Of a stretch of DNA of 64,000 nt, positions 21,269-36,275 are shown piece after piece; the stretch's first letter is position 1, and each line of letters opens with the position of its first letter. Origin of the DNA: Vulcanimicrobiota bacterium (GTDB lineage Bacteria; Vulcanimicrobiota; Vulcanimicrobiia; Vulcanimicrobiales; Vulcanimicrobiaceae); contig OY970223.1 in NCBI GenBank assembly GCA_963714015.1, positions 832,001 to 896,000 of the forward strand, written 5' to 3'. Both the position numbers and the translations under genes were made by a program. The notes beneath the pieces are model-generated. The model was not told where the DNA came from, searched no databases, and saw only the letters and a list, made by a program, of their open reading frames with translations.

Positions 21269-22252
21269 ATGGAAACATCGGCGCAGCGGCAGTTCGGAAT
21301 TGTCGTTATAGGCGGGTCTGCCGGCTCGCTCGAAGCCCTTCAACAAATCGTTGCGAATTTCCCGGACGACATTCCCGCGGCAGTCTTCGTAGTGACGCAT
21401 ATCCCGTCGGACACGGTTAGCGCGATGCCGCATTTGCTCAGCCGGCGGGGCGCGCTTTTCGCGACGCACGCAATCGATCGGGCGCCCATTAGTCCGGGGA
21501 AAATCATCGTGTGCCCGCCGGGCCATCATCTCGTTATCGAGCGCGACGTAATGCGCGTCGTGACCTGGGCTAAAGAGAACGGCTACCGGCCCTCGATCGA
21601 CGTGCTCTTCAGGAGCGCCGCCGAATCATACGGCAAAGCAACCTGCGCCGTATTACTTTCCGGCACGCTCGATGACGGAGTTGCAGGATTGCGCGCGGTT
21701 CGCGAGGCGGGAGGAGGAACGTTGGTGCAAGATCCGGCCGACGCCGCGTTCCCGGACATGCCTCGCAACGCTATTACGGCCAACGTCGCCGACCGCGCCC
21801 TACCCGCACCCGCGCTTGCTGAGGCTATCGTATCGTACGTCGAAACGGCGGTGGTCGAAGGCCGTGGCGGGCTCGTGCCTTTTGCGGCGCCGGACGAACG
21901 CCGCCAAGGCAAACCTTCCGTGTTTACGTGTCCCGACTGTAGCGGCACGCTTTGGGAGATGGAGGGGAAAGACTATCTGCGCTTCCGCTGCCGGACCGGC
22001 CATGCATATTCCGTCAACTCGATGATGGCCGTTCAGCGAGATGCGGTTGAGAGTTCGCTTTGGTCTGCGGTGCGGATCTTACAGGAACGCGGCGATCTGC
22101 TGCGCCGGCTTTCGCACCGGGCGCAGGCGCGCGGCGACTCCATCTCGGCCGATCGGTTCCAACGTCAGGCGCAGGAGCTGACCAACGACGAGATTGCGAT
22201 CCGTAACGCGCTGAGCGACGTCATCGCTCAGAGCCAGAGCTCGGCCGGGTGA
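21269..22252 (+). CDS. Stand-alone CheB-type methylesterase with C-terminal Zn-ribbon and coiled coil
   Basis: GGSAGS, VTH, RPSIDVLF and LSGTLDDG; CPDC...RCRTGH. Confidence 0.9.
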   Translation: METSAQRQFGIVVIGGSAGSLEALQQIVANFPDDIPAAVFVVTHIPSDTVSAMPHLLSRRGALFATHAIDRAPISPGKIIVCPPGHHLVIERDVMRVVTWAKENGYRPSIDVLFRSAAESYGKATCAVLLSGTLDDGVAGLRAVREAGGGTLVQDPADAAFPDMPRNAITANVADRALPAPALAEAIVSYVETAVVEGRGGLVPFAAPDERRQGKPSVFTCPDCSGTLWEMEGKDYLRFRCRTGHAYSVNSMMAVQRDAVESSLWSAVRILQERGDLLRRLSHRAQARGDSISADRFQRQAQELTNDEIAIRNALSDVIAQSQSSAG

Positions 22253-24465
22253 TCGCTGCAACGGCAATATCGACTGAGCCCGGCAGCGCGCTCGTGACCG
22301 CAGCCAGCGGATTAGGCGAAGATTCCTCGAGCTGCTTTTGAACGATCCGCACCAGCTCGGTCGATGCCAAACCAGCCTGCGACTCGTTTCCGTAAATCAA
22401 CGTCAACGTTCCCGGCCGCAGCCGCATGCGTCCAGTAAGCGCGTCCGTACGTTTTTGCGGGAGCGCAGCCGGGCCTCGACGGCCGATCTGCAGCGGCGCC
22501 GGAAACCCCAAGGCTGCGAACGTCAATCGCGACTGAGGGCCCGAGACGACTCCCGCAAATGCGGCGCGCAGTTCGATGCCCGCATTTGCTACGACCGCGC
22601 GCAAAAGGTCAACCTCGAGTTCGTCGCCGTGTTCGGCGGCGAGCGCGATCTCGTGCAGCATAGTTTCCGCGATTTCGAGTGATTCGTGGGGATCCGGCGC
22701 ATCCGCGGCGACAACGCCCACGCACTGATCCGCGCCGCCGATCGGGGACATCCGTATGGAGCACGTGGAGGCGTTTCCGCGATAGGAGTCGATCCGGCAG
22801 TCGCGCACCATCAGGTGCATCCAATGCGGCGCTTCCGAGAACACGCGCGTTTCCGCGCGGGAAAGACGCAACTGTAGAATGCTGAATGCGCGCGATGCGG
22901 ACTCGCACAAGGAGAGCATCGCTTCGAACTCCGCTTCGCTCAGTTGCCGCCGGCGGGTAAGCACGAGCATGTTCCCGACGACTCGCCCGGACTCCATTAT
23001 CGGAATGGACGCACCGGAAACGGGCGATAACGCGGCGAGGCCGTTTCGAGCCGTCTCGTCGTCGGTAATTTCGGAGTAAAAATCCTCGTCGATTTGGGAA
23101 CGCACGATTGCGCGGCCATCCAGGAACGTCGTCGGCACCACGTCGATCGCCGGCTTTTCAGATTCCGGCCGGTGCGCGCTGTAAAGATTTCCGGATGAAT
23201 CGAACATCTGCACGACGCAGCGGTCGGCTCCGATTTCGCACGCAGAGCGGCATACGGCGCGGGCGAGTTCCATGCCGTCCGCACATTGCACCAGTTGGGG
23301 CCAAAAGAATCCGACGGTAGAAACGAGCGATTGCCGGCGGCGTTTGGGAATGAGCCGAATCGTTTCTTTGATGACACGAAAGATCTCGTCGCGGGAGGCG
23401 GTTTGGGGAACGCGGCCGTCGACGAGCAGGTCGAGCTCCGCGTCGTCCTGTTCTCCGCCGAAGTAGATGATTGCGGCATGAGACGTTCCGGTTGCGTGCC
23501 GGATGGCCCGCAGGGCAGCGAGCGGCTTCATCGAGCCGGTACTGTCGAGCAGAACGACGTCGACGCGGCGCGCTTCCAGCAGCCCCCAAAGGTCGCCCAG
23601 GTTAGATGCCTTCGTGACCTGCCAGCCCCTGCGCGCGATCATTTCTTGCAGCGTCCGGCGCAATGCGGCGTCGCTGATGTGCAGCACGATGTCCGGAGCG
23701 GCCGGGAGCGGCGCGAATTTGATCGAGTCTACGTTGAATTGCCGCACCGCCGCTGCCGGATCGGCCGATGCGACCGCCAGCCCTTCTATCGTCCGGATCA
23801 GCAGATTCTCGTCACGCTGCAGCGGAGGATTTTGTCTGAGGGTCGCAACGACCACATAACGTTCACCGCTTGATAGGACGAACGGAACGGCGAGGCCGCG
23901 TCCTCCGCCGGCCGGATGCTTTACGACGCAGGCGCGACGGCGCGCGAAGAGCCGGTGGAGGGGCCATCGCTGCCAGTCTGCGTGTGTCTTCAAAAGGACC
24001 GCCGATGGCGCGCACCAGGACAAACGCTCCCGCGCTTCGCGAGAGAAAGAGCGCGCACGACGTAAACAGCTGCGGGCGAATGTCGTAAAGCATTTGCGCG
24101 AAGGACTGAACGTCGGCGACGGTAGCGTCGCGAGGATTTGCGCTGCGGACAATTGCCGGAAGCGCGTCGAACGTGCCTGTGCGGCTCCCTGCGCCGAGCT
24201 CAACGTAGACTGCGCGTTCCCCTGAAAATTGGAGCGGCGTGAACGTCCAGTTCGCTTCGCCGATTTGAACCGCAGAAGGTTGACCGTCTTCGTATGCGCG
24301 TTCTACCCTCAGATTGACGGCAGCGGGAAGTTCGCGCGGAAAAAGTGCGCGAAACGCTTCATTCGCGGCGATCGCCAGCGGCTGCCAGATACAACGCGGA
24401 GCGGCGCTGTCGAGCAACTGTTCGGCGAACGCCCGAAGCGGACTTAGGAGCGCCGGCGAAGACAT
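22221..24465 (-). CDS. Multi-domain signalling protein: GAF-like, receiver, GAF and degenerate SpoIIE/PP2C-like domain (frameshift near 23960)
   Basis: ORFs 23863-24465 and 22221-24203 fuse if one C of a CCCC run is removed (AAMA/LHRLFARR); VDVVLLD receiver; ALGFPAPL and LRPGTLTLIY resemble the SpoIIE fold. Confidence 0.6.
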
Positions 24466-24710
24466 GCCCCGTTTTGACGCAGAAATGCACCCAAGCGTTC
24501 CTGCGACACTCGGCGGAAGAGCTGACGTAAGGCAATCTCTATAACGGAACTTTCGCTAACCCGGTGTTCGTAAGCGATTCGTTTGAGCTCGCTGCCGAGG
24601 TCGGAAGACAAATTCACGGAAAACTTCAGAGCGTTTGCCGAGTTGCCCACCTCCGCCGCGAGTTGGCGTGGGTTGGGAGCGGGGTGAAGTGCGGTCGAAG
24701 AATGTGCCAT
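24444..24710 (-). CDS. Ribbon-helix-helix (CopG/Arc-like) protein
   Basis: KFSVNL strand, SDLGSELKRIAYEH helix, RVSESSVIEIALRQLF helix. Confidence 0.75.
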   Translation of the reverse strand: MAHSSTALHPAPNPRQLAAEVGNSANALKFSVNLSSDLGSELKRIAYEHRVSESSVIEIALRQLFRRVSQERLGAFLRQNGACLRRRS

Positions 24711-24882
24711 AGCAAGTATTATTGCATATCATCAGTCGTGCGTACTGCCGGCGCGGCGCGTTCGCCGCAAAATTTTTCCCGGCGAGAATGCAAGCGGTGC
24801 CGCCAACCAGCGGGCCGGTCGGCTGGAGCGGTAATCCTAAGTAGCATTAAGAGGCCGCTCCGCACGAGGAGAAAGGATCCGA

Positions 24883-25335
24883 ATGTATCAGGTCATCGTT
24901 TTCATTCACGTGCTTTCGGCAATCGTCGCGGTCGGATACAACGCGACGTACGTGGTATGGCTCACCCGCGGCGGCATGGAGCGCGCTCACCTGCTCTTTG
25001 CACTGCGAACGATCCGCTTCATGGACGCCAAGATCGCCAATCCCGCCTACGGGCTGCTGTTGGTAACGGGGGTCGCGCAAGTGATGCTTTCGCACCGCTC
25101 GTGGCATGAAGCGTGGATCGAATGGGCGATCGTCCTGTGGATCGTGCTTGCCGCTGTTGCCTACGGCGCCTATACGCCGGCGCTGAAGCGTCAAATCGCA
25201 ATCGTCGAAGGAGGTGACGTTTCGGGAGAACAGTATGCGGCTGCGAACCGGCGCGCGACGGCAATCGGTGCTTCGTTGATGGTTCTTGCGCTCGCTATTC
25301 TCGGGCTGATGGTATTCCGCCCCGGCGGAGCTTGA
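24883..25335 (+). CDS. DUF2269-like four-TM membrane protein
   Basis: FIHVLSAIVAVG N-terminus; LLLVTG; LMVFRP C-terminus; strong SD. Confidence 0.8.
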   Translation: MYQVIVFIHVLSAIVAVGYNATYVVWLTRGGMERAHLLFALRTIRFMDAKIANPAYGLLLVTGVAQVMLSHRSWHEAWIEWAIVLWIVLAAVAYGAYTPALKRQIAIVEGGDVSGEQYAAANRRATAIGASLMVLALAILGLMVFRPGGA

Positions 25336-25342
25336 CGCGCCG

Positions 25343-26242
25343 ATGCGCGTACTGCTGATCGTCAACGAAAAGTCGCGAAAGGGCGGCCGTGAGGGCGCAC
25401 TCGTCTGCAGCACGCTCGAAGACCTCGGGATTGACTGCTCGCAGGATGCCTCGGCGGAGAACGTTGATGCGGTAGTGGCGGCCGGCGGCGACGGTACGGT
25501 GATCTCCACGCTTCCAATTGCGATAGAGCGGGGCGTCCCCCTCGGCGTCGTGCCGCTCGGAACGTTCAACGACCTTGCTCGAACGCTCGGGATTCCACTG
25601 GACGTTCGGGGAGCGTGCGAAACGATCGCGGCAGGGGCCGTGCATGAAATCGACGCCGGCCGCGTCAACGGGTCGTATTTCGTGAACGAAGCGAGCGTCG
25701 GACTCTCAACGCGCATCGCGCGGCGCCAGACTCCGCAAGTCAAGCAGCGCTTTGGTTTGTTGGGAGTCGCTGCGACCGCGCTGCAAAGCCTGCGCGCCGC
25801 ACGTTTCTTTACGGTAACGTTGACGTATGGCGATGGTGCGGTCGAGCGGTTCCGGACGATACAGCTCACCGTTGCCAACAATGCGCGATTCGGCGGCATT
25901 ATGGAAAGGCCCGGCGCTTCGATCGACGACGGCTGGCTCGACCTTTACTCGATAGAGCCGCGCAACTGGCTGCAAGCAGTGCGCGTGGCCGGAAAAATTC
26001 TCGCGCGCGATCCAGACTCCGGCGAAGGTTTGCGGACCCGGCGCGCAGCGAGGTTTGACGTTTCTACAAACCACCGGCATCACGTCGCAGCCGACGGAGA
26101 AGCGGCCGGTTTTACGCCGGCCGTCTTTGAAATCGTTCCGAAGGCGGTCCGCGTCTTTGTGCCTAAGGCGGCCGGATGCGCTACAGAACCCTCGGACATT
26201 CCGGACTCAAAGTTTCAACCGTCGGACTCGGTTCCTGGCTGA
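25343..26242 (+). CDS. Diacylglycerol/lipid kinase family (YegS/DAGKc)
   Basis: VNEKS, AGGDGT, PLGTFNDLAR, VANNARFGG, DDGWLD and ADGE motifs. Confidence 0.92.
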   Translation: MRVLLIVNEKSRKGGREGALVCSTLEDLGIDCSQDASAENVDAVVAAGGDGTVISTLPIAIERGVPLGVVPLGTFNDLARTLGIPLDVRGACETIAAGAVHEIDAGRVNGSYFVNEASVGLSTRIARRQTPQVKQRFGLLGVAATALQSLRAARFFTVTLTYGDGAVERFRTIQLTVANNARFGGIMERPGASIDDGWLDLYSIEPRNWLQAVRVAGKILARDPDSGEGLRTRRAARFDVSTNHRHHVAADGEAAGFTPAVFEIVPKAVRVFVPKAAGCATEPSDIPDSKFQPSDSVPG

Positions 26243-27150
26243 CGTACGGCGGAAACGTCGGAGCGGACACGGCCCGTGCATGCGTGCTGCGCGCATGGGA
26301 GAAGGGCGTCAACTTCATCGACACCGCAAACGTGTACGCGCGCGGTGCAGCCGAAGAAGTCCTTGGACCGATCTTGCGGGAGCTGAACCGCGACGCGCTG
26401 GTTCTGGCCACGAAGGTGTACTTTCCGATGGGCGACACGGTGAACGAACACGGCCTCTCGCGTAAGCACATCCGCGACCAAGTGCATCATTCGCTGCGGC
26501 GCTTGAAAGTCGACTACATCGATCTCTATCAATGCCACCGCTTCGATCAGACGACGCCGATTGAAGAGACGTGTGAGATGATGAACGATCTCGTTCGATC
26601 GGGATGGATTCTCTACTGGGGCGTTTCGGAATGGAACGCGGATCAAATCTCGTCCGCGGTAACGCTGTGCCGCGCCCGCGGCTGGGCAGCACCGATCAGC
26701 AACCAGCCTCAGTACAGCGCGCTTTGGCGCCGCATCGAGCAGCGCGTACTGCCCACTTGCGAGGCGTACGGTGTAGGGAACGTCGTGTGGTCGCCGCTGG
26801 CTATGGGAATCTTAACCGGGAAATACACGGATGCGAAAAACCCGCCGCCCGGCACTCGCGCGGCCGGTTCGAACCGTGACATGATGGAGGACTACTTCAC
26901 CCAGCCCGTACTGGATGCCGTGGCGCAGTTGCGGCCGCTTGCCGAGAGCGCCGGTTGTACGCTCGCGCAACTCGCGCTTGCATGGTGCTTGCGCCGGCCT
27001 GCGGTCAGCAGCGTAATCGTCGGCGCGACAAAAGCACAGCACGTCGACGATAACGTCGGTGCCGCGGATCTGGCCGTCGATGCCGCAATCTTCGCACAGA
27101 TGGATCGTATGTTGGAGCCGGTCGCCCCGAGCGAACCGTATCTCAGTTAA
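26176..27150 (+). CDS. Aldo/keto reductase (Kv-beta-like)
   Basis: GLGSW, DTANVY, ATKV, DLYQCH, WGVSEW, NQPQYS and WSPLA motifs. Confidence 0.95.
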   Translation: MRYRTLGHSGLKVSTVGLGSWLTYGGNVGADTARACVLRAWEKGVNFIDTANVYARGAAEEVLGPILRELNRDALVLATKVYFPMGDTVNEHGLSRKHIRDQVHHSLRRLKVDYIDLYQCHRFDQTTPIEETCEMMNDLVRSGWILYWGVSEWNADQISSAVTLCRARGWAAPISNQPQYSALWRRIEQRVLPTCEAYGVGNVVWSPLAMGILTGKYTDAKNPPPGTRAAGSNRDMMEDYFTQPVLDAVAQLRPLAESAGCTLAQLALAWCLRRPAVSSVIVGATKAQHVDDNVGAADLAVDAAIFAQMDRMLEPVAPSEPYLS

Positions 27151-27156
27151 AAGCGC

Positions 27157-27300
27157 CTTAAAAAAGATTTGGGCTGACGATGGTGGAGGCATCGTCAGCC
27201 CTTCTTGCTGCACTCTACGAGGTTGGAGTCGAACGGGTTACTGACGTGGAGGACAACAGCCCGTTTTCCATCTCGCATGACTATCATGCGGATGAAACCT
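27157..27300 (-). ncRNA. Candidate structured RNA (3'-UTR sRNA or attenuator) with CCUCCAC anti-SD loops, ending in a terminator
   Basis: Minus-strand hairpins: UUUCAUCCGCAUGA-UAG-UCAUGCGAGAUGGAA; AACGGGCUGUUG-UCCUCCA-CGUCAGUAACCCGUU; GGGCUGACGAUG-CCUCCAC-CAUCGUCAGCCC, then AAAUCUUUUUU. G-U pairs are valid only on the minus strand. Confidence 0.6.
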
Positions 27301-27310
27301 TAAATGCGCC

Positions 27311-27481
27311 TTAATTCCAGTTTTTCAGCAGATTACCAACGCCTGAGACTTTTGGGCCCCAGCCGCTGAACGACGCCGTATCCGGCGTGTTCGACATGAC
27401 GCGCGCGATCGTAATCGTCGGACGCGTGTCGGCATCTGTCTGGGTCGTTATAGGCGCTTGCGCTTTCCTAGCGGTTTTCAC
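27311..27481 (-). CDS. Small protein (56 aa) with FxGWGPK motif, peptide A
   Basis: AAGGA SD 7 nt before GTG at 27481: MKTARKAQAPITTQTDADTRPTITIARVMSNTPDTASFSGWGPKVSGVGNLLKNWN. The track start at 27526 is an alternative. Aligns with 32535-32651. Confidence 0.65.
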   Translation of the reverse strand: MKTARKAQAPITTQTDADTRPTITIARVMSNTPDTASFSGWGPKVSGVGNLLKNWN

Positions 27482-27531
27482 AATTGAATCCTTTATGAGT
27501 TCGGGAACGCACACCGCGTGTTCCATTCCGT

Positions 27532-27635
27532 ACTGTACATCCGCTTCTACTGCGCGCCTACAACTTTTGTTTCATGCGATTTTGTCGCAGAACGCGCGAT
27601 GCGATTTCGTTGTGACGGTTTGAACTATTTCGTTG
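27532..27635 (-). promoter_or_regulatory. Candidate -10 and three spaced direct repeats upstream of peptide A
   Basis: TACAGT (minus strand, 27532-27537); ATTTYGTYG at 27579-27587, 27604-27612 and 27627-27635 (spacing 25 and 23 bp). Confidence 0.5.
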
Positions 27636-27803
27636 TTCGAGGTGTTATACGTTCACAGAAGACTCGTTCGAATCGTTATCGACTCTTGGCGGGGTGCGGA
27701 ACATCGGCCGCGTGGCAGCGTATAACGGAAGGAACCGCTGTTCCGGGCGCGGCGGGGCCCGGCGGCGGAGCCCGAGAACCGCACATGGGGAAGGAACGCG
27801 CTG

Positions 27804-29195
27804 ATGACCATTTATCGATTCGGCCCATTCCGGCTCGAGAAGGAGCCGTTGCTCCTGCGGGTCGGCGAAAGCACCCTGCCGCTGGGTCCCAAGGTCGTCG
27901 AAACATTGCTCGCGCTCATCGAACGTCCCGGCCAGGTCCTCTCCAAAGCGGACCTGCTGGCGCGAGTATGGCCCGAGGGGTACGTCGAGGAAGCGAACCT
28001 CGCGCAGAATATCTACGTCATTCGCAAGGCGCTGCGTTCGCACTGGGGTCAGTGTCCGATCGAAACCGTTCCGAGGCGCGGTTACCGTTTCTCGGCCCCG
28101 GTTACCACCGGCGACCTGGCCGCCCCGGCGCCGCGCAATCGCAGCCGGCTCTGGATGGGCGCCGGCGCAGCCGCGGTCTTTGCGTTGGCGGTCGCAGCGG
28201 GAAGCATCGGCGTGGCAAACTCTCGCGCATCTACGACCGCCAGCTTGTCCGAACCGGGCGCGCGGCTGTACTCCATGGGCAAGTTCTATTGGAATCAGCG
28301 CACAGCTTCTAGCGTCGTCAAGAGCGTTCGGTACTTCCAGGAAGTGATTCAAAGCGATCCTCATGACGCTCTCGGCTATGCGGGACTGGCGTCGGCATAT
28401 GCCATCGAGGGCGACTATCATTTCGGACCGCTGTCGAAGCCCCAAGCGTTTGCCCTCGCGTCCGATTACGCGCGCAAGGCGCTGAGCATCGACCCGCGGT
28501 CGGCCGAAGCGATGGCGGACATCGGTTTGGCGCAAGTGGACGCGGGCCACGAATCTGCCGGAGAGCTGTGGTTCCGGCGTGCCATTGCCGCCAACAACAG
28601 CTACGCGCCGGCGCATCAGTGGTACGGGATGTCGCTGCTGCAGCGCGGCAACGGCGCGGCCGCTTACCGGGAACTGCAGCGAGCCGCGAACTTGGATCCG
28701 GAGTCCGTTGCAGCGACGGACTGGCTCTCGCAAGCTGCTTACTTGTCACGACGCTATCGCGATGCCGTCAGCTACGCGCGTCAGACCCTGGATCTTTCAT
28801 CGCAGCGGTACGACGCTTACGGCACGATGGGGATGGCCTACGAGGCGCTCGGCGATTACCATAAAGCAATCGTTTCGTACGAAATCTTCGCGCGCAGTTG
28901 CGCCGCGTGTCAAGGCGAAGCGGCGGCACTGATGGCCCACGCGTACGCGGCGATTCACGATGATTCGGCGGCTGAAGCAGAGCTCAGCAAAGCTCGCGCT
29001 GCGATGGCCATGCAGATGGTCGATCCCGAGGACCTCGTCACGGCGCTGGTGGCGATGGGACGGCGCACCGAAGCGCTCAAGATGCTCGAAGACCATAAGC
29101 GGGCGCTCTTTCCCGGAGCGCTTGCGATCGATCCGCGAATGGATCCCGTACGGGACGACAAGCGTTTCCGCCTCTTCATCAAGGGTCCGGGCTAA
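27804..29195 (+). CDS. CadC/ToxR-like regulator: OmpR-type wHTH, TM helix, TPR array
   Basis: YRFGPFRL...LSKADLLARVWP..VEEANLAQNIYVIRKAL..IETVPRRGYRF; hydrophobic LWMGAGAAAVFALAVAAGSIGV; several TPR repeats. Confidence 0.92.
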   Translation: MTIYRFGPFRLEKEPLLLRVGESTLPLGPKVVETLLALIERPGQVLSKADLLARVWPEGYVEEANLAQNIYVIRKALRSHWGQCPIETVPRRGYRFSAPVTTGDLAAPAPRNRSRLWMGAGAAAVFALAVAAGSIGVANSRASTTASLSEPGARLYSMGKFYWNQRTASSVVKSVRYFQEVIQSDPHDALGYAGLASAYAIEGDYHFGPLSKPQAFALASDYARKALSIDPRSAEAMADIGLAQVDAGHESAGELWFRRAIAANNSYAPAHQWYGMSLLQRGNGAAAYRELQRAANLDPESVAATDWLSQAAYLSRRYRDAVSYARQTLDLSSQRYDAYGTMGMAYEALGDYHKAIVSYEIFARSCAACQGEAAALMAHAYAAIHDDSAAEAELSKARAAMAMQMVDPEDLVTALVAMGRRTEALKMLEDHKRALFPGALAIDPRMDPVRDDKRFRLFIKGPG

Positions 29196-29207
29196 GCGCT
29201 CGAATTC

Positions 29208-29660
29208 GTGACGGCGCGCTACTTGCAGGCCGCGCTCTCGGCACGGCCGCAGATCGCCGCTAGTCTGGAGCAGCATGAGCGTGCCGTAATGGAGACCGGC
29301 GACGTGCATCCCGTCACCAAGGAACTCTGCGCCGCCCTTTGTGCCGCCGTAAACTTTTGCACGCCGCTGTTGGTGGAGCACCGCGCGCGAGCGCGCGAAA
29401 TGGGCGTCAGCGTTGCGAAGTTGAACGATCTTTGGGAATTTGCGCGCAGCGCCGAGTACTCGAAGGAGGAACGCGCCGCCCTCGCAGCGGCGGTGGCGCT
29501 TTCGCGAGAACCTCGCGCGCTGCCGGCGGTCGTGTGGGAACAGTTGTGCGATGCGTACGACGAACCTTCGATTAGCGAGATTCTCTGCGTTATCGGCTGC
29601 GTCAATTACACTGCCCGGCTCGTGAACGCACTCGACAGCAAGCCGCGCGAACCGTCATGA
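29208..29660 (+). CDS. Carboxymuconolactone decarboxylase / AhpD-like protein
   Basis: KELCA...VNFCTPLLVEH; YSKEERAALA; EILCVIGCVNYTARL. Confidence 0.85.
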   Translation: MTARYLQAALSARPQIAASLEQHERAVMETGDVHPVTKELCAALCAAVNFCTPLLVEHRARAREMGVSVAKLNDLWEFARSAEYSKEERAALAAAVALSREPRALPAVVWEQLCDAYDEPSISEILCVIGCVNYTARLVNALDSKPREPS

Positions 29661-31088
29661 CGAAGCGGTAGCGCTCACCTGCGCCAGAACGCGCTCGGTT
29701 TTGATCATACGCGTGCCGGAGAATCGGTCTTGCAGGTACACGCGCGAGAAGGGGCTGAGCGGAATAATCAGCCACCACAGAAAAAATACGATCGTGTAAC
29801 GCCACAGACTCTGCAGAACGCGCGGCTGGCCGTATTCAACTGTGACGATGCGCGTACCGCCGATCATCATGCCTGCCGTCTGTCCGGTCAGGCCCACCAG
29901 CAATCCGAAGTACAGACACATCCAGATCGGAAGCATTGCCCCGGTGGCCTGCTCGCGGAAATCTGCCCACGTTAGGCCGCTGCTTCCGATAGAGAGGCCG
30001 TCGGTACGAACGGAAACGGAACCGATTCTAAATATCTCGTCCGAGCTCGTAACCGCCGCGTCGGCTTGCGGATGAAGCCCTTTGACGGTGATCCCCGGTT
30101 TATTCTTGACCGGCCCGGGCGTGACGCTGGTCGAGACGCCCGATGCGCCGGCCAGCGTCTGCACGACGGCGGTAACGACGATAAAGTCTATGACCACTGC
30201 CATACAGCGCCGCCACCAGCCGGCGCAGTCGCGCTTTGCCACGCGTTCTCCCCGCGTGGCCGCGGTTTCCAACGGCAGCTCCCGGCTCTCTTCGACGAAT
30301 CTCTGCTCGTGCGTGCGGTAGAGCTGCGAAGCGAAGAAATCACGCATCGCATCGATCCGTTTGGTCGCGTACGGCGTCGCCCCAAGCCACTCGCCCAGCC
30401 GCAGCACCGAATCGCTGCGGATCTCGCGAGACTGCTCCGCGAAGAGTCCCGGATCGACTTTGCGTCCGAATCCGTGAAACGATGCGATGACGATCGCCCG
30501 CATCGCTGCATCGAGCGAGCCGCAACAGAGCAGTCCCACGCGATCGCACGTCAGTTCCGTCTTGCGCAGCCACGCACCGAAGATCAGCGAGACGATGACG
30601 TTTTCGTTACCGTTCACGCTGAGCAGCGAGGTAAAGCGCGTATGCCCCGAGGCGATATGCCCGAGCTCGCGGCCGATCATGAATGTGAGCTCGTCATCCT
30701 TGAAGTGCTCGATCCAGTTGCTCGAAATCACGATCGAATAGGGATCTCCCAATCCCACGGTCAGGATCGGTACCTGCGGATCGTCGCGCACGAACACGAG
30801 CGGCATGGGTAAGCCGAGGGCGGCGGCGCAGCGCTTCGTAATCGAGAAAACGCGCGGATACTGCGCTTCGTGGATGCGCACGCTGCTTCCGACTAGGCGC
30901 CCGCGCGCGAGGGTGACGTAAATCATGGCGACGACGAGCAGTACGGCGATCTGCGATGGATGGACGTCTTCACGCAATACGAAGCCGATAAGAGCGGCTG
31001 CGGGCAGCGAGAAGAGCAGCGTCATCCAAAATGCGATATGCTCGCCGCGGTACGTGAGTGAAAGCGGGCCCTTGAAGAAATCGCGCAT
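29655..31088 (-). CDS. M48 (HtpX/Ste24-like) peptidase-fold protein fused to an RDD domain; HExxH altered
   Basis: ELTFMIGRELGHIASGH; WLRKTELTCDRVGL; C-terminal AGWWRRCMAVVID...GQTAG...LQDRFSGT (RDD). Confidence 0.85.
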   Translation of the reverse strand: MRDFFKGPLSLTYRGEHIAFWMTLLFSLPAAALIGFVLREDVHPSQIAVLLVVAMIYVTLARGRLVGSSVRIHEAQYPRVFSITKRCAAALGLPMPLVFVRDDPQVPILTVGLGDPYSIVISSNWIEHFKDDELTFMIGRELGHIASGHTRFTSLLSVNGNENVIVSLIFGAWLRKTELTCDRVGLLCCGSLDAAMRAIVIASFHGFGRKVDPGLFAEQSREIRSDSVLRLGEWLGATPYATKRIDAMRDFFASQLYRTHEQRFVEESRELPLETAATRGERVAKRDCAGWWRRCMAVVIDFIVVTAVVQTLAGASGVSTSVTPGPVKNKPGITVKGLHPQADAAVTSSDEIFRIGSVSVRTDGLSIGSSGLTWADFREQATGAMLPIWMCLYFGLLVGLTGQTAGMMIGGTRIVTVEYGQPRVLQSLWRYTIVFFLWWLIIPLSPFSRVYLQDRFSGTRMIKTERVLAQVSATASS

Positions 31089-31092
31089 CTGC

Positions 31093-32382
31093 TCAGGAAG
31101 CTCTATCCGCCGCTGCGGCGGGTTCTCGTTCTCGGCGAGTTGCGCGCAGCACCAACGGCGTCACCGCTATTAGCGTCAGGGCTACGGCGGCGTAACCGGC
31201 CGTGTAGCCGTACCACACGCCGTCCAAGCCGTAGCGCGCCGCCAGAATGCTCGCGCACGGAACGGCGACGAGCCACGCGCCCGCAAGGTTCACGATTGCA
31301 CTCCATGCGCTCTGGCCGTATCCGTCGAGTTCGGCGGCGATGACGTTTCCGATTCCGAGGGCGAACGCACTCCAACCCGCGATGAGCAAGCCCGATCGCG
31401 CCAGCTGCACCGTCTGCGGATCGTCGATGAACGCACTCAACAGCGGAACAGCGAAGAGGTACAGCGCGATGGCCAGGATACCGCCGATCGCAAGGTTCAA
31501 CCCCAGCGCAGTCCGCGTCGATCGGCGGCACGCCGCCGCGGTCGTTGCAAATACGAAGGCCGGAGTGGTGAGAACCGCAATGCCGAACGTCACGAGCGTG
31601 AATGCCGCACCGCCGCGCGCGCCGTAGCTGTTCGCGATACTTACGAGTGCGATCTCCGCAAGTGCCACGGCGAGATATTGAACGCTGCCGGGTAAGTCGA
31701 CGCGAAGCACTTCATTGATCGCCTGCGCACTCGGAAAAAACGATCGCAACGCCACGTCCAGGCGAAACTCCGTACGGTGAGCGTACAGCACGATGGATGC
31801 GCCGATCGTTACGATAAGCGTAGCGGCGAGGGATGAGATCGGAACGGACAACGCTCCGACGTGCAGAAATGCGAGCGAGACGAGATACAGCGCCGTGTAT
31901 GCCGCAGTCAGCGCGGGCGGCGCAACCGGATCGTGCAGGCCGTGCAAGACTGCGAGGTACATTCCGAACGCGAACGTCGCAGGAAGCGAGAGCGCGAGCA
32001 GTTCCGTATAAGGAAGCGCAATGCGAAGTTCGGCGTGCGAGACGTTGACCGCGCGAAGCAGCTCGGGCGCAAACAAAGCCCCCAACGCGCCAAGCACCAT
32101 GCCGGCAAAGATCGAACCCAGCACCGCTTGGGTGACGATCCGATGCAGCCGGTCCGTCTCTCCGGCAGCCTTGGCTCGCGAGACAGCGATCATTACGCCT
32201 GCGGAGCATCCCGAAAACAACGCGTAGCCCGCCGCTGCAAATGTTAGCGGAGCCGCCGCCGCGCCGAGGGCGTCGACGCCCAGGTGGCCCAGTACGAAGA
32301 GCGCGGCCGCATTGCCCCCTAAGAGAAGGGCTTGCGTGCCGAGCAGCGGCAACGAATAAAGTAAGACCTGCCGGAGCACCAT
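31093..32382 (-). CDS. MATE family efflux transporter (divergent)
   Basis: LGHLGVDALGA, ALPYTELL..SLP and LGLDGVW-like YGLDGVWYG; about 12 TM segments. Confidence 0.8.
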   Translation of the reverse strand: MVLRQVLLYSLPLLGTQALLLGGNAAALFVLGHLGVDALGAAAAPLTFAAAGYALFSGCSAGVMIAVSRAKAAGETDRLHRIVTQAVLGSIFAGMVLGALGALFAPELLRAVNVSHAELRIALPYTELLALSLPATFAFGMYLAVLHGLHDPVAPPALTAAYTALYLVSLAFLHVGALSVPISSLAATLIVTIGASIVLYAHRTEFRLDVALRSFFPSAQAINEVLRVDLPGSVQYLAVALAEIALVSIANSYGARGGAAFTLVTFGIAVLTTPAFVFATTAAACRRSTRTALGLNLAIGGILAIALYLFAVPLLSAFIDDPQTVQLARSGLLIAGWSAFALGIGNVIAAELDGYGQSAWSAIVNLAGAWLVAVPCASILAARYGLDGVWYGYTAGYAAVALTLIAVTPLVLRATRREREPAAAADRAS

Positions 32383-32446
32383 GCTCGCCTTTGAGTTGTA
32401 CCGGGGGCCTCTCCTTGCGGCCGTGAGAATTTTTCGCCCAAAGGGC

Positions 32447-32492
32447 TTGACATCACGTACTGATATGCTATTGTACTAGTGTACTAGTACAA
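32447..32492 (+). promoter_or_regulatory. Sigma-70 promoter overlapped by a palindromic YtrA-type operator
   Basis: TTGACA (32447-32452); TGcTATTGT (32466-32474); TTGTACTAGT-gt-ACTAGTACAA (32471-32492). Confidence 0.85.
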
Positions 32493-32534
32493 CAGCAGAT
32501 TGGTACTAGACGCCACCAGAGAGGTTCCACGAAC

Positions 32535-32651
32535 ATGACAATCCGCACCAACCGTCAAGTCCCCACCAGCCTCGGCGAAAACCGCCGTCCCGCCTTCCCG
32601 ATAGACCAGCAGTCCGGCAGCCTGTTCCTCGGCTGGGGCCCGAAGATCTAA
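32535..32651 (+). CDS. Small protein (38 aa) with FxGWGPK motif, peptide B
   Basis: AGAGG SD about 10 nt upstream; MTIRTNRQVPTSLGENRRPAFPIDQQSGSLFLGWGPKI; first ORF after the promoter; below the ORF-track length cutoff. Confidence 0.7.
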   Translation: MTIRTNRQVPTSLGENRRPAFPIDQQSGSLFLGWGPKI

Positions 32652-32665
32652 CCGGTTCAGCCATC

Positions 32666-33064
32666 ATGCCGGCAGTGCTTACGGTCGACCCGCGCAGCGG
32701 TGTTCCGATCTACCTACAAATCATCGAGCAGGTAAAACGTTCGGTAGCGCTCGGGGTCCTAGCGGCCGGAGAGCAACTGCCCACCGTCAAGCAGCTGGCA
32801 CTCGATTTGACCGTCAATCCAAATACCGTCGCCCGAGCGTACCGCGAGCTCGAACGGGACTCGATCATCGAAACCTCGCCGGGTCGCGGCTCCTTCGTCC
32901 GCGGTAACGGCACAGTCGAATCGGCGCACTCCGCTGCAAGCGACGTAACCGCAGAAGCCCTGATGCAATCCGTGCGCGAAGCCCGGTCGATTGGATTGAG
33001 CGCGCCGCATGTGCGAGCACTTTTCGAGTCCGCGCTGGCGCGGTGGTTTTCGGAGGAAAAATGA
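32666..33064 (+). CDS. GntR family regulator, YtrA subfamily
   Basis: PIYLQIIEQVK...GEQLPTVKQLALDLTVNPNTVARAYRELE...PGRGSFV with a short C-terminal domain. Confidence 0.95.
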   Translation: MPAVLTVDPRSGVPIYLQIIEQVKRSVALGVLAAGEQLPTVKQLALDLTVNPNTVARAYRELERDSIIETSPGRGSFVRGNGTVESAHSAASDVTAEALMQSVREARSIGLSAPHVRALFESALARWFSEEK

Positions 33065-33961
33065 GCATCACGATCGATCGCCTTACGAAACGGTACGGCA
33101 AGTTCACCGCGGTCGATGACGTGTCGATCGAGATCCCGAGCGGTTCGGTGTTCGGCTTACTCGGCCCCAACGGGGCGGGCAAGACGACGACCTTCAAATG
33201 CGCGCTCGGCCTTGCGTTTCCGACGTCGGGAATCGTGCTCTTCGACGGCAAGCCCCTTACGCCGCGTACTTTTGAGAATCTAGCTTACGTTCCCGAACGG
33301 AGCGTGCTGTGGGACTGGCTCACCGGGGCCGAGCATCTGGAGATGCAGCGTCTGACCTTTCGCCGCTTCAATGCAAAGCGCGCCGCCGAACTGATGGAGC
33401 TCTTCCAACTCGATCCGCGCAAGCGCGTCTCCAAAATGTCGAAAGGCATGCGCACGGCGCTTTCGGTCGTCATGGCATTCGCTTTGGAACCGGAGCTGCA
33501 TGGTGCTCGACGAGCCGACGAGCGGTTTGGATCCGATCAATCAGCGCTCGGTCCTCAAACTCATCATCGACGCGTCGGCGCAAGGCAGCACGATCGTTTT
33601 GTCGTCGCACCAAATCGGACAGGTGGAACGCGCCGCGGACCATATTGCCGTACTTAAACACGGTAAGGTTGCGCTCGCCGGAGCGGTCGACGATCTGAAG
33701 GCCGATTCAAAGGTAGTCGAAGTCATCTTTGAGTCCGAGGCAATGCCGCTCAACGGATTAGCCGAAGACTCCAGAATCACGCGTCTGGAGCGGACGGGGC
33801 GCATTCTGCGCCTCACGGTCAATGCCGGCAGCGAGTCCATCGCAAAGCAGCTTTCCAGTATGGGCGCACGATCGGTGCGCGTTGTGGACCTCAACCTGGA
33901 GGACATCTTCTTGAACGCCGTCGATCCGGGTTACGCCGCCGACGTCGTGGAGTCACGCTAA
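33061..33961 (+). CDS. ABC exporter ATP-binding protein (one extra base at about 33499)
   Basis: GPNGAGKTT Walker A; MSKGM signature; EPEL/MVLDEPTSGLDP Walker B split across frames; LSSH. Confidence 0.9.
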
Positions 33962-34980
33962 TGTACTACTACGTCGAATACATGCGCGCCAAGCGGGCGA
34001 TGCGCGTGATCGCGATCATTCTTGGCGTCATCGTGGTTGCGCTTGGTATCGGACGCATTTGGATGATGAAGTATCCTTCGCCCGAGTCGTTCGCTGCGAT
34101 GTTCGAGAGCACGTCCGGCGCGCATGTCACGCAGACGACCCTGCCCGGCGGAATGAAAGAAACCGTCGTGAACGATCCGGTCAAGCGGGTGCACACCGTC
34201 ATCGACCGTAAAGGCGATTATCTTCGGATCCAGTTCACGGAACCCGACTCGATCTACGAGCAGCAGCCCCACGACATCTTCTCGCCGGACGACGACCGCC
34301 AAACTGTGTCGGTCAACCACGGAATCGCGCACGGCACCTATTTGGTTCGTCAACACAACACCTTCGACGTGAGCGGCGTCCTGCAGATCTCGATGATCAT
34401 CGCCCTCATTACGGCTACACTGCTCGCGGCGCCGCTAACCAAGGAGAACGACGGCCATCTGGAACTCACATGGACCAAGCCGATCTCGCGAACGGCGTAC
34501 GCATGCGCGTGCGTTGCGGTCGACGCGGCAGCGATCGTCGTTTCTCAAATCTTCACCTTGGTCGTAGCCTTCTGCTGCTACTTGATGTTCGCTTCGCCTG
34601 AAATTCGCCTGACCTCAGTGACCGTCGTGCTGCTCTCGCTGCTCGGTCCTATCGTCTGGTACGCCATGATGACGGCTATCGGCGCAAGCGTCAAGCGCGG
34701 TCCCGGGTTGGTCATCGGGCTTTCGTGGGTCGCGTCGTTCCTCGTCTTCGGAATCGCCAAAGCTTCGGAAGATGCGCAGAGTTCGCTCGGTAGAGTGATC
34801 CATGCGATATCGCAGGGAGTCGCTTACCTCGATCCGCTGGCATACATTACTACGAACAACGGGAATTTCGCCGGCAACGGCGCCGTAACGACCGTTACGG
34901 AAAGCATCGCGGCGCTAATCGTTCTCGCAGTTCTCTACATCGTGTCTGCGGTGCTCCAGTGGCGCCGCGTGGAGGCGTAA
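33961..34980 (+). CDS. ABC exporter permease
   Basis: N-terminal TM, extracytoplasmic domain, KENDGHLELTWTKPISR coupling-helix motif, five further TMs; TAATG-coupled to the ATPase. Confidence 0.85.
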   Translation: MYYYVEYMRAKRAMRVIAIILGVIVVALGIGRIWMMKYPSPESFAAMFESTSGAHVTQTTLPGGMKETVVNDPVKRVHTVIDRKGDYLRIQFTEPDSIYEQQPHDIFSPDDDRQTVSVNHGIAHGTYLVRQHNTFDVSGVLQISMIIALITATLLAAPLTKENDGHLELTWTKPISRTAYACACVAVDAAAIVVSQIFTLVVAFCCYLMFASPEIRLTSVTVVLLSLLGPIVWYAMMTAIGASVKRGPGLVIGLSWVASFLVFGIAKASEDAQSSLGRVIHAISQGVAYLDPLAYITTNNGNFAGNGAVTTVTESIAALIVLAVLYIVSAVLQWRRVEA

Positions 34981-34985
34981 CTCAC

Positions 34986-35147
34986 ATGGAACTCTTTGGT
35001 ACCAACTTCTCGATCACGCTGGGAGCGTGGAAGCTGCGGTTCGTACTGATGCTCGAAGAAACCGATGATTTCAACCGCACAGCATCGACCGCGGCGCGGA
35101 CCCCGCACCACGTGCACGCCTCACAGGATCGTCGCGCTAACGTGTGA
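34986..35147 (+). CDS. Small hypothetical protein (53 aa) closing the GntR-ABC operon
   Basis: GGAGG SD inside the permease end; MELFGTNFSITLGAWKLRFVLMLEETDDF... Confidence 0.55.
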   Translation: MELFGTNFSITLGAWKLRFVLMLEETDDFNRTASTAARTPHHVHASQDRRANV

Positions 35148-36275
35148 AGGGCCGGCGTACGAGAAGCCGTCTTTGGTCACGCTATAAAAGAAGAGGTTCG
35201 GGTCGACCGGATCGCCGGTCGGCGCGAACAGAAAATCGCCGACCAAGGTATTGTAGGTCGTGCCCGGGGTCTGCAGCGCCGAAAGCGTCGAGAGACGGTT
35301 CATCGCGCCGGTCCGCCGCACGGCGGCTATCGCGATCTGCGCGGCGGCGTAACCGAATGCCGAGACGATCGTGATGTTCGACCGCGTGCGAAAGTTCATC
35401 AGCTGCTGGCCGGCGCCCGGAATGCGGTCGAGCGGCGGAAACGACGTCGACACGTACCCGCCCGAAAAGGCTTTCGCGTAGCGCTGCGGCGGGTCCATAT
35501 TATAGAATCCTTCACAGGCGCCGAATTTGCCGCCGTATCCTGCGGCCAGAAGGGCCGGGATCAGCGGTCCGAGCCGGCCGCTTTCGCCGCACAGAAAAAC
35601 GAAGTCTGGCGAACGCGCCATGACCCTCTTTGCTGCCGCGTCAAAATCGGGTTTGTCGCTTGGAAAGACGTACCCGTCGGCATTCAATTTGGAACTATGC
35701 GCTTGATCCGTAAATCCCGTCATGACGTCGCCGCCGTAAACACCATCTTGCGAAACCGCAATGGCCATCTTCGGGTGAAGACGCCCGTTGATGAAGCGCG
35801 CGAAGAGCTCTCCCTCGGTGTAATCTTTGGTCGGCAGACGCCAAACGACGCGATAGCCCCGCTGCGTGATCGCGTCGGCTGTCGTAGCCGGGACGATGAC
35901 CGGCATCCGCGAATTTGCAAATACCGGAAGCGCCTGCGCGATTTGATCGCCGTCGAATCCGGCGATCATCGCCAGCACTGTCGGATCCGATCCGGCGAAT
36001 TGCACGTTGTTGACGAGCTGCGAGTACAAGCCGGCGTTGTCGAAGGTGCGCAGCGAAAACGCGCTATTGAGCATCGGCGCGAACTGATTCGCGAAATCGA
36101 CCGCTATCTGCACGCCGGTGACGAGCTGCTGCCCGAGCGATTGATTTGGTCCTGAAAGCGGAGCATTTACGCCGATGCTGAGCGGCTGCTGAATTCCGCG
36201 GAACTGCGCGAGTGCCCGCGCCGGCTGCAGCGCCGCAGCCGCAACGCCGGACGCCAAAAAGGAACGTCGTTTCAT
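35121..36275 (-). CDS. Branched-chain amino acid ABC-type substrate-binding protein (LivJ/K-like, Tat signal)
   Basis: MKRRSFL twin-arginine motif; IGVNAPLSG; periplasmic binding protein type 1 pattern. Confidence 0.88.
   Translation of the reverse strand: MKRRSFLASGVAAAALQPARALAQFRGIQQPLSIGVNAPLSGPNQSLGQQLVTGVQIAVDFANQFAPMLNSAFSLRTFDNAGLYSQLVNNVQFAGSDPTVLAMIAGFDGDQIAQALPVFANSRMPVIVPATTADAITQRGYRVVWRLPTKDYTEGELFARFINGRLHPKMAIAVSQDGVYGGDVMTGFTDQAHSSKLNADGYVFPSDKPDFDAAAKRVMARSPDFVFLCGESGRLGPLIPALLAAGYGGKFGACEGFYNMDPPQRYAKAFSGGYVSTSFPPLDRIPGAGQQLMNFRTRSNITIVSAFGYAAAQIAIAAVRRTGAMNRLSTLSALQTPGTTYNTLVGDFLFAPTGDPVDPNLFFYSVTKDGFSYAGPSHVSATIL

Follow-up and report, generated by a model that had tools for sequence, protein, structure and literature searches.

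The window analyzed here, a 64,000-nucleotide stretch of contig OY970223.1 from a Vulcanimicrobiota bacterium, contains two short genes, called A and B below, that are almost certainly real, conserved coding genes. Their sequences point to a new, well-delimited family of small proteins that appears to be tied to a YtrA-type repressor switch and to have a putative role in it, and A and B are two of its three paralogues in the host genome. A preliminary description of the window had proposed that the two peptides, which share an F-x-G-W-G-P-K motif, are paralogous and selected at the protein level. The positions, strands and sequences that it quoted for the two open reading frames (ORFs) were read exactly as given, and each ORF is preceded by a Shine-Dalgarno (SD)-like element (AAAGGA at 27494-27489 for A and GAGAGG at 32519-32524 for B), as it had said. 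The features of the two genes are:

27311..27481, minus strand: gene A, A-type, 56 residues, from the GTG start at 27481 to the TAA at 27311.
27347..27370, minus strand (read 27370 to 27347): motif codons of A for F-S-G-W-G-P-K-V, TTC AGC GGC TGG GGC CCA AAA GTC.
27489..27494, minus strand: SD-like AAAGGA, 7 nt before the GTG of A.
32519..32524, plus strand: SD-like GAGAGG, 10 nt before the ATG of B.
32535..32651, plus strand: gene B, B-type, 38 residues, from the ATG at 32535 to the TAA at 32651, ending LFLGWGPKI-stop; first cistron of its operon.

The motif codons of B (32625-32648, plus strand) read TTC CTC GGC TGG GGC CCG AAG ATC, so that the Pro and Lys codons differ synonymously from those of A (CCA/CCG and AAA/AAG), as had been pointed out; the second and last codons differ too. 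A six-frame search found GWGPK twice in the whole 3,562,638-bp genome, and both occurrences are A and B (the shorter strings GWGP and WGPK occur 17 and 7 times, respectively). The claim that the two peptides align along their length holds in part. BLASTP covers just the eight-residue motif (6/8 identical, E = 2e-4 in a single comparison), and it is the family alignment that adds an R-P/T-x-hydrophobic block at a fixed distance from it. Both genes are already predicted in a public protein collection (source NCBI), B as the same 38 residues and A as a 71-residue form beginning at an upstream ATG at 27526. The conserved start of A is the GTG at 27481: the GTG is the first start codon of the open A frame in 2/5 relatives (G007 and G022), and the AAAGGA box lies 7 to 8 nt ahead of the A-type GTG in 5/6 aligned genomes.

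Substitution patterns indicate that both A- and B-type genes are under purifying selection in the frame given above. Among 20 B-type ORFs of one genus, over the 30 codons not fixed by the search pattern, the ratio of nonsynonymous to synonymous substitution rates (dN/dS) was 0.29 in frame versus 1.76 and 1.78 in the other two frames, and diversity by codon position was 0.235, 0.202 and 0.466; the first 100 codons of the downstream GntR gene give 0.10 in the same comparison. The A-type genes of six genomes gave 0.34 versus 1.03 and 1.78 in the other frames, values that are rough because dS exceeds 1. Together with the family alignment, these ratios bear out the proposal of paralogous coding genes selected for their protein product, and homologous small ORFs, sought in relatives, were found there with their frame conserved.

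The family consists of proteins of 33 to 74 residues with the core F-x-G-W-G-[P/V/I]-[K/R/S]-hydrophobic, and its invariant part appears to be just F-x-G-W-G followed by these three partly variable positions. B-type members (33 to 43 residues) carry a block R-[R/T]-P-x-hydrophobic-[P/R] and then L-F-x-G-W-G-P-K-hydrophobic-stop; B itself matches the family profile at E = 3.4e-17. In A-type members (53 to 56 residues, GTG start), R-P-T-I-T is followed by F-x-G-W-G-P-K-V and, beyond a brief variable segment, by a conserved hydrophobic-hydrophobic-[K/R]-x-[W/F/L]-N end. The motif is thus internal in A, where FSGWGPKV is followed by a conserved 12-residue tail ending NWN, and 12/12 A-type sequences share its F, G, W, G, P, K and V without variation. 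Full-length A-type matches occur in 15/37 own-family genomes (the host, G000, included) and in none of the other two families. C-type members, found in the sister family (45 to 47 residues), have an acidic N terminus and then G-P-D-T-S-I-F-x-G-W-G-P-K-L-stop, and stand alone. The third copy in the host genome (G000:C1, 1,041,335-1,041,451, plus strand, outside the window) encodes 38 residues ending F-G-G-W-G-I-R-F-stop; it has an SD-like AAAGAGAG and also stands alone, with no GntR gene after it on that strand. Several genomes carry three or four family members away from the operon. Within the motif, K is replaced by R in 6/64 clusters and in several copies from operons, and by S in G026; P gives way to V in G008, G012 and G026 and to I in the third copy.

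In B-, C- and D-type copies the stop follows the basic residue at a distance of exactly one codon. The stops of 120 distinct family ORFs are TAA in 82, TAG in 35 and TGA in 3, whereas TGA is the commonest stop (42%) in the long ORFs of the host. In one genus the stop and the next bases form an SD-like TAGGA or TAAGG. These 120 ORFs end in F (46), L (45), I (12), A (9) or V (8), and the penultimate residue of the family is mostly K, with R in some copies and S in a single one. Family peptides are predicted to be unstructured, non-membrane and hydrophilic: the longest strictly hydrophobic run is at most five residues in 45 family sequences, with no membrane span, and neither a signal peptide nor a double-glycine leader was found in them. 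B-type peptides have a median net charge of +2, A-type peptides one of +3 and C-type peptides one of -2.5 (C-type range, -3 to -2). An AlphaFold2 model of A reached a mean pLDDT of 60.7 and a pTM of 0.17, without a confident fold, which fits a linear motif.

Among the genomes searched, the family appears to be confined to one class of the phylum, whose members are labeled Eremiobacterota or Vulcanimicrobiota. A 15-nt pattern for G-W-G-P-K gave 75 matches in 45/61 related genomes (19 in a backwards control), and 19 of 30 loci fetched from that search hold a family-like short ORF; 17 of these stop exactly one codon past the Lys, one has three more residues and one is A. The strict 27-nt pattern for F-x-G-W-G-P-K-x-stop was found in 202/401 genomes of the phylum (one match in the backwards control), namely in 183/296 of the host's own family, 18/30 of the sister family of the class, 0/5 of a third family and 0/69 of all others. 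This contrast with the control, and the restriction of GWGPK to A and B in the host genome, rule out chance. Profile searches detected the family in 53/61 relatives (own family 32/36, third family 1/5, sister family 19/19) and, in a sample of the phylum, in 87/113, 9/15 and 0/3 genomes, with 0/69 in other families. Counts for the relatives include the unpublished genomes G010, G021, G023, G030, G031, G048 and G059, and the 401-genome count also G231, G248, G346 and G371; their depositors' permission is needed before publication, and our conclusions hold without them.

Outside the phylum sample, the profile was compared with 1.84 billion representative proteins, giving 65 hits at E up to 1e-3. 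All except one, a repeat protein, are 33 to 74 residues long and carry the motif, and the named relatives are labeled 'hypothetical protein', one of them from a metagenome-assembled genome (MAG) of Candidatus Baltobacteraceae. The sole candidate for a fused or longer form of the family was an over-extended ORF call. A DNA pattern scan of species genomes covered 19/64 parts of 185,579 genomes, and 46 of its first 80 loci are family-like: 41 carry Eremiobacterota- or Vulcanimicrobiota-type labels, and the other five, on MAG contigs, are labeled 'uncultured bacterium' (two), 'bacterium', Acidiferrales and Alphaproteobacteria. No family match was found in Pfam, PADLOC or PDB sequences. NCBIfam likewise has no such family, and the E value of 0.24 of one member to prfA was taken as noise. 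The best score in the ESM Atlas with B was an uninformative 0.77, and our literature search found no paper with 'GWGPK' in its text. Among public sequencing runs, no RNA run was listed for this DNA, and one soil-metagenome DNA run contained 0.32 of the sampled words.

Two kinds of match were set aside. Matches in Myxococcales/Polyangiaceae come from a repeated DNA element that reads F-W-G-W-G-P-K-T and has no consistent ORF. MAGs of this group contain it in many copies, sometimes several per contig, and it looks like an unrelated dispersed repeat (loci L101, L104, L116, L118, L120, L121, L130, L131, L141, L145, L146, L149, L177, L178, L184, L185, L192, L193, L201 and L213). A 175-codon frame at L056 (G016), with GWGPK before a signal-peptide-like stretch, did not match the family profile and was taken as chance.

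What ties the family to a repressor switch is the operon that B opens, the further features of which are:

32447..32474, plus strand: promoter of the B operon, TTGACA, 16 nt, TATTGT preceded by TG; 10/12 consensus matches.
32471..32492, plus strand: putative 22-bp palindromic operator, TTGTACTAGT-GT-ACTAGTACAA, overlapping the -10 element and start region.
32666..33064, plus strand: YtrA-type GntR repressor, 132 residues, starting 14 nt past the stop of B, without an SD.
33061..33961, plus strand: ABC ATPase, preceded by an SD of its own (GAGGAG) and overlapping the GntR stop in ATGA; a one-base insertion splits the gene.
33961..34980, plus strand: ABC-2-type permease, 339 residues.

We consider the operon, its operator and the coupling described below very probably real. 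The promoter is conserved across 16 aligned B-type upstream regions, and the palindrome is conserved in relatives of both the own and the sister family. In the host genome it is the only site with zero to two arm mismatches; the next best has three, and such an operator-like site precedes a paralogous YtrA-type GntR-ABC operon. These observations agree with the earlier suggestion that B lies behind a regulated promoter, and the position of the palindrome over the -10 element indicates that the operon is self-repressed, as predicted from sequence. The repressor has PF00392 over residues 16-78 of 132 and a short C-terminal part, and 34 of its orthologues are 61 to 86% identical to it.

Translation of the repressor appears to hang on that of the peptide. 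The gap between peptide stop and GntR start is 3 to 33 nt in 37/37 operon-type pairs, and pairing with the anti-SD averages -6.9 kcal/mol ahead of the peptide starts, -3.8 ahead of those of GntR and -2.4 for random positions; in a set of 17 pairs chosen across the taxonomy, the GntR values mostly lie close to background. The preliminary description had already remarked that the GntR gene lacks a clear SD and suits translational coupling, and these energies and gaps support it. With an SD-less start a few bases past the peptide stop, most of the repressor is probably translated by ribosomes coming straight from the peptide ORF, and because the ATPase has its own GAGGAG and the ATGA overlap, only the repressor would depend on peptide translation. 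The association between peptide and operon is tight: 9/9 GntR operons in genomes without the strict pattern carry a variant peptide (GWGPR, GWGVK or GWGVSI), and a B-type match is present in each of the 20 own-family relatives whose permease orthologue spans residues 1-339 (as one piece or two, at E = 1.4e-29 or better). The latter is an association and not a statistical test, since the relatives are not independent.

By module, the closest known system is MbrRAB of streptococci, an 'extruder-repressor' module where the YtrA-like MbrR is sequestered by its ABC ATPase during bacteriocin export and where, according to the authors, there is no dedicated peptide (bioRxiv 10.64898/2026.02.18.706565). 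Like it, the system described here has a short YtrA-type GntR next to an ABC ATPase and a permease, a palindrome at the operon promoter as its putative operator and, as predicted, autoregulation. Unlike it, this operon encodes a peptide on which repressor translation hangs, and its lineage is Eremiobacterota-labeled rather than Bacillota.

With this precedent we tentatively favor, as possible rather than probable, the view that the peptides are trans-acting linear-motif ligands of the repressor-exporter module. The module would recognize the shared tail, which would be cargo of the ABC-2 exporter or would modulate the contact between ATPase and repressor. Transporter activity would set the amount of free YtrA-type repressor, as described for MbrRAB; B would supply the module's built-in peptide in fixed proportion to the repressor, and A would serve the same module under another promoter, probably of the envelope-stress type. 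Two considerations lead to this proposal. A-type and C-type genes and the third copy keep the motif though no gene follows them, and with three of four subtypes lacking a downstream gene, a trans-acting linear motif is the simplest common reading. The peptides are placed as ligands or cargo of the GntR/ABC-2 module because it is their sole co-occurring partner, because YtrA-type repressors have no ligand domain, and because of the MbrR precedent. A complex prediction for a GntR dimer with peptide B (34-row alignments each) lent no support, with scores of 0.01 and 0.00 (mark, 0.32), and counts neither for nor against the proposal.

Several observations weigh against this proposal. With neither a signal peptide nor a membrane span in the peptides, export would rest wholly on the ABC-2 system. 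A paralogous YtrA-ABC operon in the same genome works without a leader peptide. C-type genes are unlinked to the operon and their products carry a net negative charge, so that one common target is an assumption. The operator was not found at the A promoter in a search of the genome, which places A outside the GntR regulon. Finally, constraints on termination are the simpler reading of a stop fixed one codon past the basic residue and of TGA avoidance, which favors a different role for B.

In that alternative, B-type peptides are cis-acting termination-arrest leaders, the tail of which would act in the exit tunnel to hold the ribosome after, or instead of, release at the stop, in the way that type II proline-rich peptides such as apidaecin trap release factors. 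The SD-less GntR start 3 to 33 nt downstream would then let dwell time set the amount of repressor and so transcription of the operon. Known arrest leaders offer a parallel: TnaC and SpeFL arrest at or near a stop codon and SecM does so in elongation, and B shares with them a short ORF directly upstream of the controlled gene and C-terminal conservation at a fixed distance from the putative stall site. To our knowledge, leaders of the TnaC, SpeFL and SecM type have no stand-alone paralogues, and we know of no arrest motif that resembles F-x-G-W-G-P-K. The likeness to the SecM RAGP sequence that had been suggested is not specific, and the C-terminal P-R-L of apidaecin is formally closer.

Type II proline-rich peptides such as apidaecin sit in the exit tunnel in the orientation of a nascent chain, with a penultimate basic residue, a Pro before it, and a C-terminal aliphatic residue with a free carboxylate; in apidaecin, R17 touches the release factor, the carboxylate of L18 sits next to the P-site tRNA, and variants that are active carry a net charge of +2 to +4 (PMC11347161). 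The P-[K/R]-[L/I/F/V/A]-COOH end of the family and the median net charge of +2 are formally similar to its P16-R17-L18. Arrest would also account for conservation concentrated in the last eight residues before a stop placed as described above, for TGA at just 3/120 family stops, and for a GntR start without an SD while the ATPase keeps both GAGGAG and the ATGA overlap. The likeness is formal only, however. Apidaecins are insect peptides of 18 to 19 residues that act from outside, and their tunnel contacts at P11-R12 (critical) and P14-H15-P16 (P14 and H15 being preferred) are unmatched here except for the Pro before the basic residue, G-W-G standing there instead. Lys prevails over Arg in the family, C-type members are acidic, and V or I for P and S for K exist. 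TGA avoidance might equally stem from the SD-like TAAGG or TAGGA at the stop (in one genus) or from a need for a non-leaky stop, and A (with its internal motif and its own terminator), the C-type genes and the third copy all keep the motif without a downstream gene to control. Overall, we judge arrest somewhat unlikely, and the ligand and arrest readings could both hold for B.

A bolder form of the apidaecin comparison, which we regard as distinctly improbable, would make the family an endogenous bacterial counterpart of such peptides. Here the tail would hold the terminating ribosome from within the exit tunnel; B would act in cis as a termination-dwell sensor that sets the YtrA repressor, stand-alone copies (A perhaps minus its 12-residue tail) would act in trans on the cell's own or competitors' ribosomes, and the ABC-2 transporter would be an export or immunity arm induced when ribosomes are held.

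The features around A are:

27171..27201, minus strand: terminator-like hairpin and T-run after A, 12 pairs, 8 of them G-C.
27504..27524, minus strand: conserved hairpin in the 5' leader of A (GGAACACGC / GCGTTCC), 9 predicted pairs, 6 genomes.
27558..27574, minus strand: near-invariant box TGAAACAAAAGTTGTAG upstream of A, from invariant alignment columns.
27804..29195, plus strand: divergent neighbor of A, encoding a Trans_reg_C winged-helix domain and TPR repeats.

An invariant GTA follows the box TGAAACAAAAGTTGTAG by 16 to 17 nt, and the two resemble an extracytoplasmic function (ECF)-type promoter, with the box as a possible -35 element. The A promoter is possibly of an ECF, envelope-stress-like type, and no sigma-70-type promoter was found in 27100-27800. 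Another sequence near A, GTACAGTAC, is kept in 3/6 aligned genomes from two genera. The terminator-like hairpin, which faces a convergent aldo/keto reductase gene, suggests that A is monocistronic. In the leader hairpin, 2/9 pairs (columns 80/103 and 84/99) have changed on both sides with pairing kept, in one genome each, and Rfam gave no match over 27000-33200 at E up to 1. The stem-loop lies 20 nt before the SD, and the 5' leader is more conserved than the N terminus of the peptide, with the TGAAAC...GTA box invariant.

The possibly ECF-like box upstream of A is one reason to consider that the peptides are small stress proteins acting on the envelope or another target, independently of the transporter, so that co-transcription just ensures co-expression; they would then be analogues of YtrG by position. 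YtrG is a 45-residue protein encoded by the first cistron of ytrGABCDEF in Bacillus subtilis, before the YtrA repressor and ABC genes; it is needed for the integrity of 'small cells' when the ytr operon is on, its molecular role is described as unresolved, and it is a single-span (monotopic) membrane protein with a basic N terminus (PMC13729164). It is the closest known protein by position, with one defining feature, the membrane helix, absent here. B matches it as the first cistron before a YtrA-type GntR and ABC genes (in 37/37 B-type pairs), and the presence of three to four members off-operon in several genomes also suits a transporter-independent role. A, in contrast, is monocistronic, and the peptides are hydrophilic, lack a transmembrane helix or any hydrophobic span, have stand-alone paralogues and share the F-x-G-W-G core, which sets them apart from YtrG. 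The tight linkage of B-type genes to the operon suggests more than co-expression, and we consider such a stress-protein role unlikely.

In the host's own family, A-type genes share a gene island with B. A lies 3 to 12 kb from B on the same contig in G001, G007, G011, G013, G018, G021, G022, G023, G027, G030 and G033, of which G021, G023 and G030 are unpublished; G021 and G030 provide two of these islands, including the most compact. Between the two genes lie varying sets of a winged-helix/TPR regulator, a CMD-family gene, an M48+RDD membrane protease, a MATE pump and a protein of 740 to 1055 residues with a weak DUF5916 match. A regulator of the kind encoded at 27804..29195 occupies the interval from A to B in G001, G022, G018, G030 and G021; in the protein from the window, a hydrophobic stretch was judged by eye to be a membrane span. 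The M48+RDD gene was tried as a dedicated partner and rejected: it is present in 32/36 own-family relatives, including genomes without a strict-pattern peptide (with weak or no profile matches), and is often unlinked, so that, being more widespread than the island, it is not counted in the system.

Such islands bear on the suggestion, made in the preliminary description, that the peptides are precursors of ribosomally synthesized and post-translationally modified peptides (RiPPs) or of secreted signals. Their core would be the GWGPK end, with enzymes encoded elsewhere, export by the ABC-2 system and perhaps sensing by the TPR domain of the regulator. A leader-like variable N terminus before an invariant C-terminal block would suit this, as would the sharing of an island by the ABC exporter, the M48+RDD protease and the TPR regulator in several own-family genomes. 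Trp-Gly-Lys cores are, moreover, cross-linked in the streptococcal tryglysins. However, 95 neighbors scanned at 20 loci include no member of a known maturase family such as radical SAM, YcaO or Lan, nor was one found in the window stretch 22221-36275. The motif tolerates R or S in place of K and V or I in place of P, with F, G, W and G invariant, and the peptides have no signal peptide or double-glycine leader. As the protease is also found, often unlinked, in genomes without a strict-pattern peptide, its place in the island weighs little for this reading. A RiPP precursor was thus not borne out, and we regard this explanation as most improbable.

YtrA-type repressors have no ligand-binding domain with which to sense a signal, and the sole worked-out case uses a partner ABC transporter as the sensor and lacks a dedicated peptide. 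In the lineage described here, an entire class within a soil phylum that is mostly uncultured puts a conserved peptide gene ahead of such a repressor, the translation of which probably depends on the peptide, and the same genomes keep separately controlled paralogues with the shared tail. If the ligand or the arrest reading is true, the system would be new either as a transporter-repressor switch equipped with its own peptide ligand or cargo, or as a termination-arrest leader with a new motif. If neither is true, what remains is still a well-defined small-protein family absent from Pfam and NCBIfam.

Some smaller observations concern the surroundings of both genes. Between A and the TPR regulator gene, short direct repeats were seen by eye at 27590-27660 (ACAACGAAAT... 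and AAATCGCAT twice), and these could be sites for the winged-helix regulator. The frameshift in the ATPase gene of the B operon consists of an extra C near 33498-33500, inserted shortly ahead of Walker B where the codons for ...EPEL meet those for MVLDEPT.... The second half-ORF begins at an in-frame ATG, and the G001 orthologue is intact, with 77 to 78% identity on both halves. In G008 the ATPase gene is interrupted elsewhere, and G013, G017 and G007 have permeases that seem to be split or fused; since every one of these is a long-contig assembly, indel errors and genuine decay are equally likely. The paralogous operon in the host genome, with a YtrA-type GntR of 139 residues and an ABC ATPase, lies around position 3043413 (G000:C1, outside the window) and, being without a leader peptide, offers a natural comparison for what the peptide adds.

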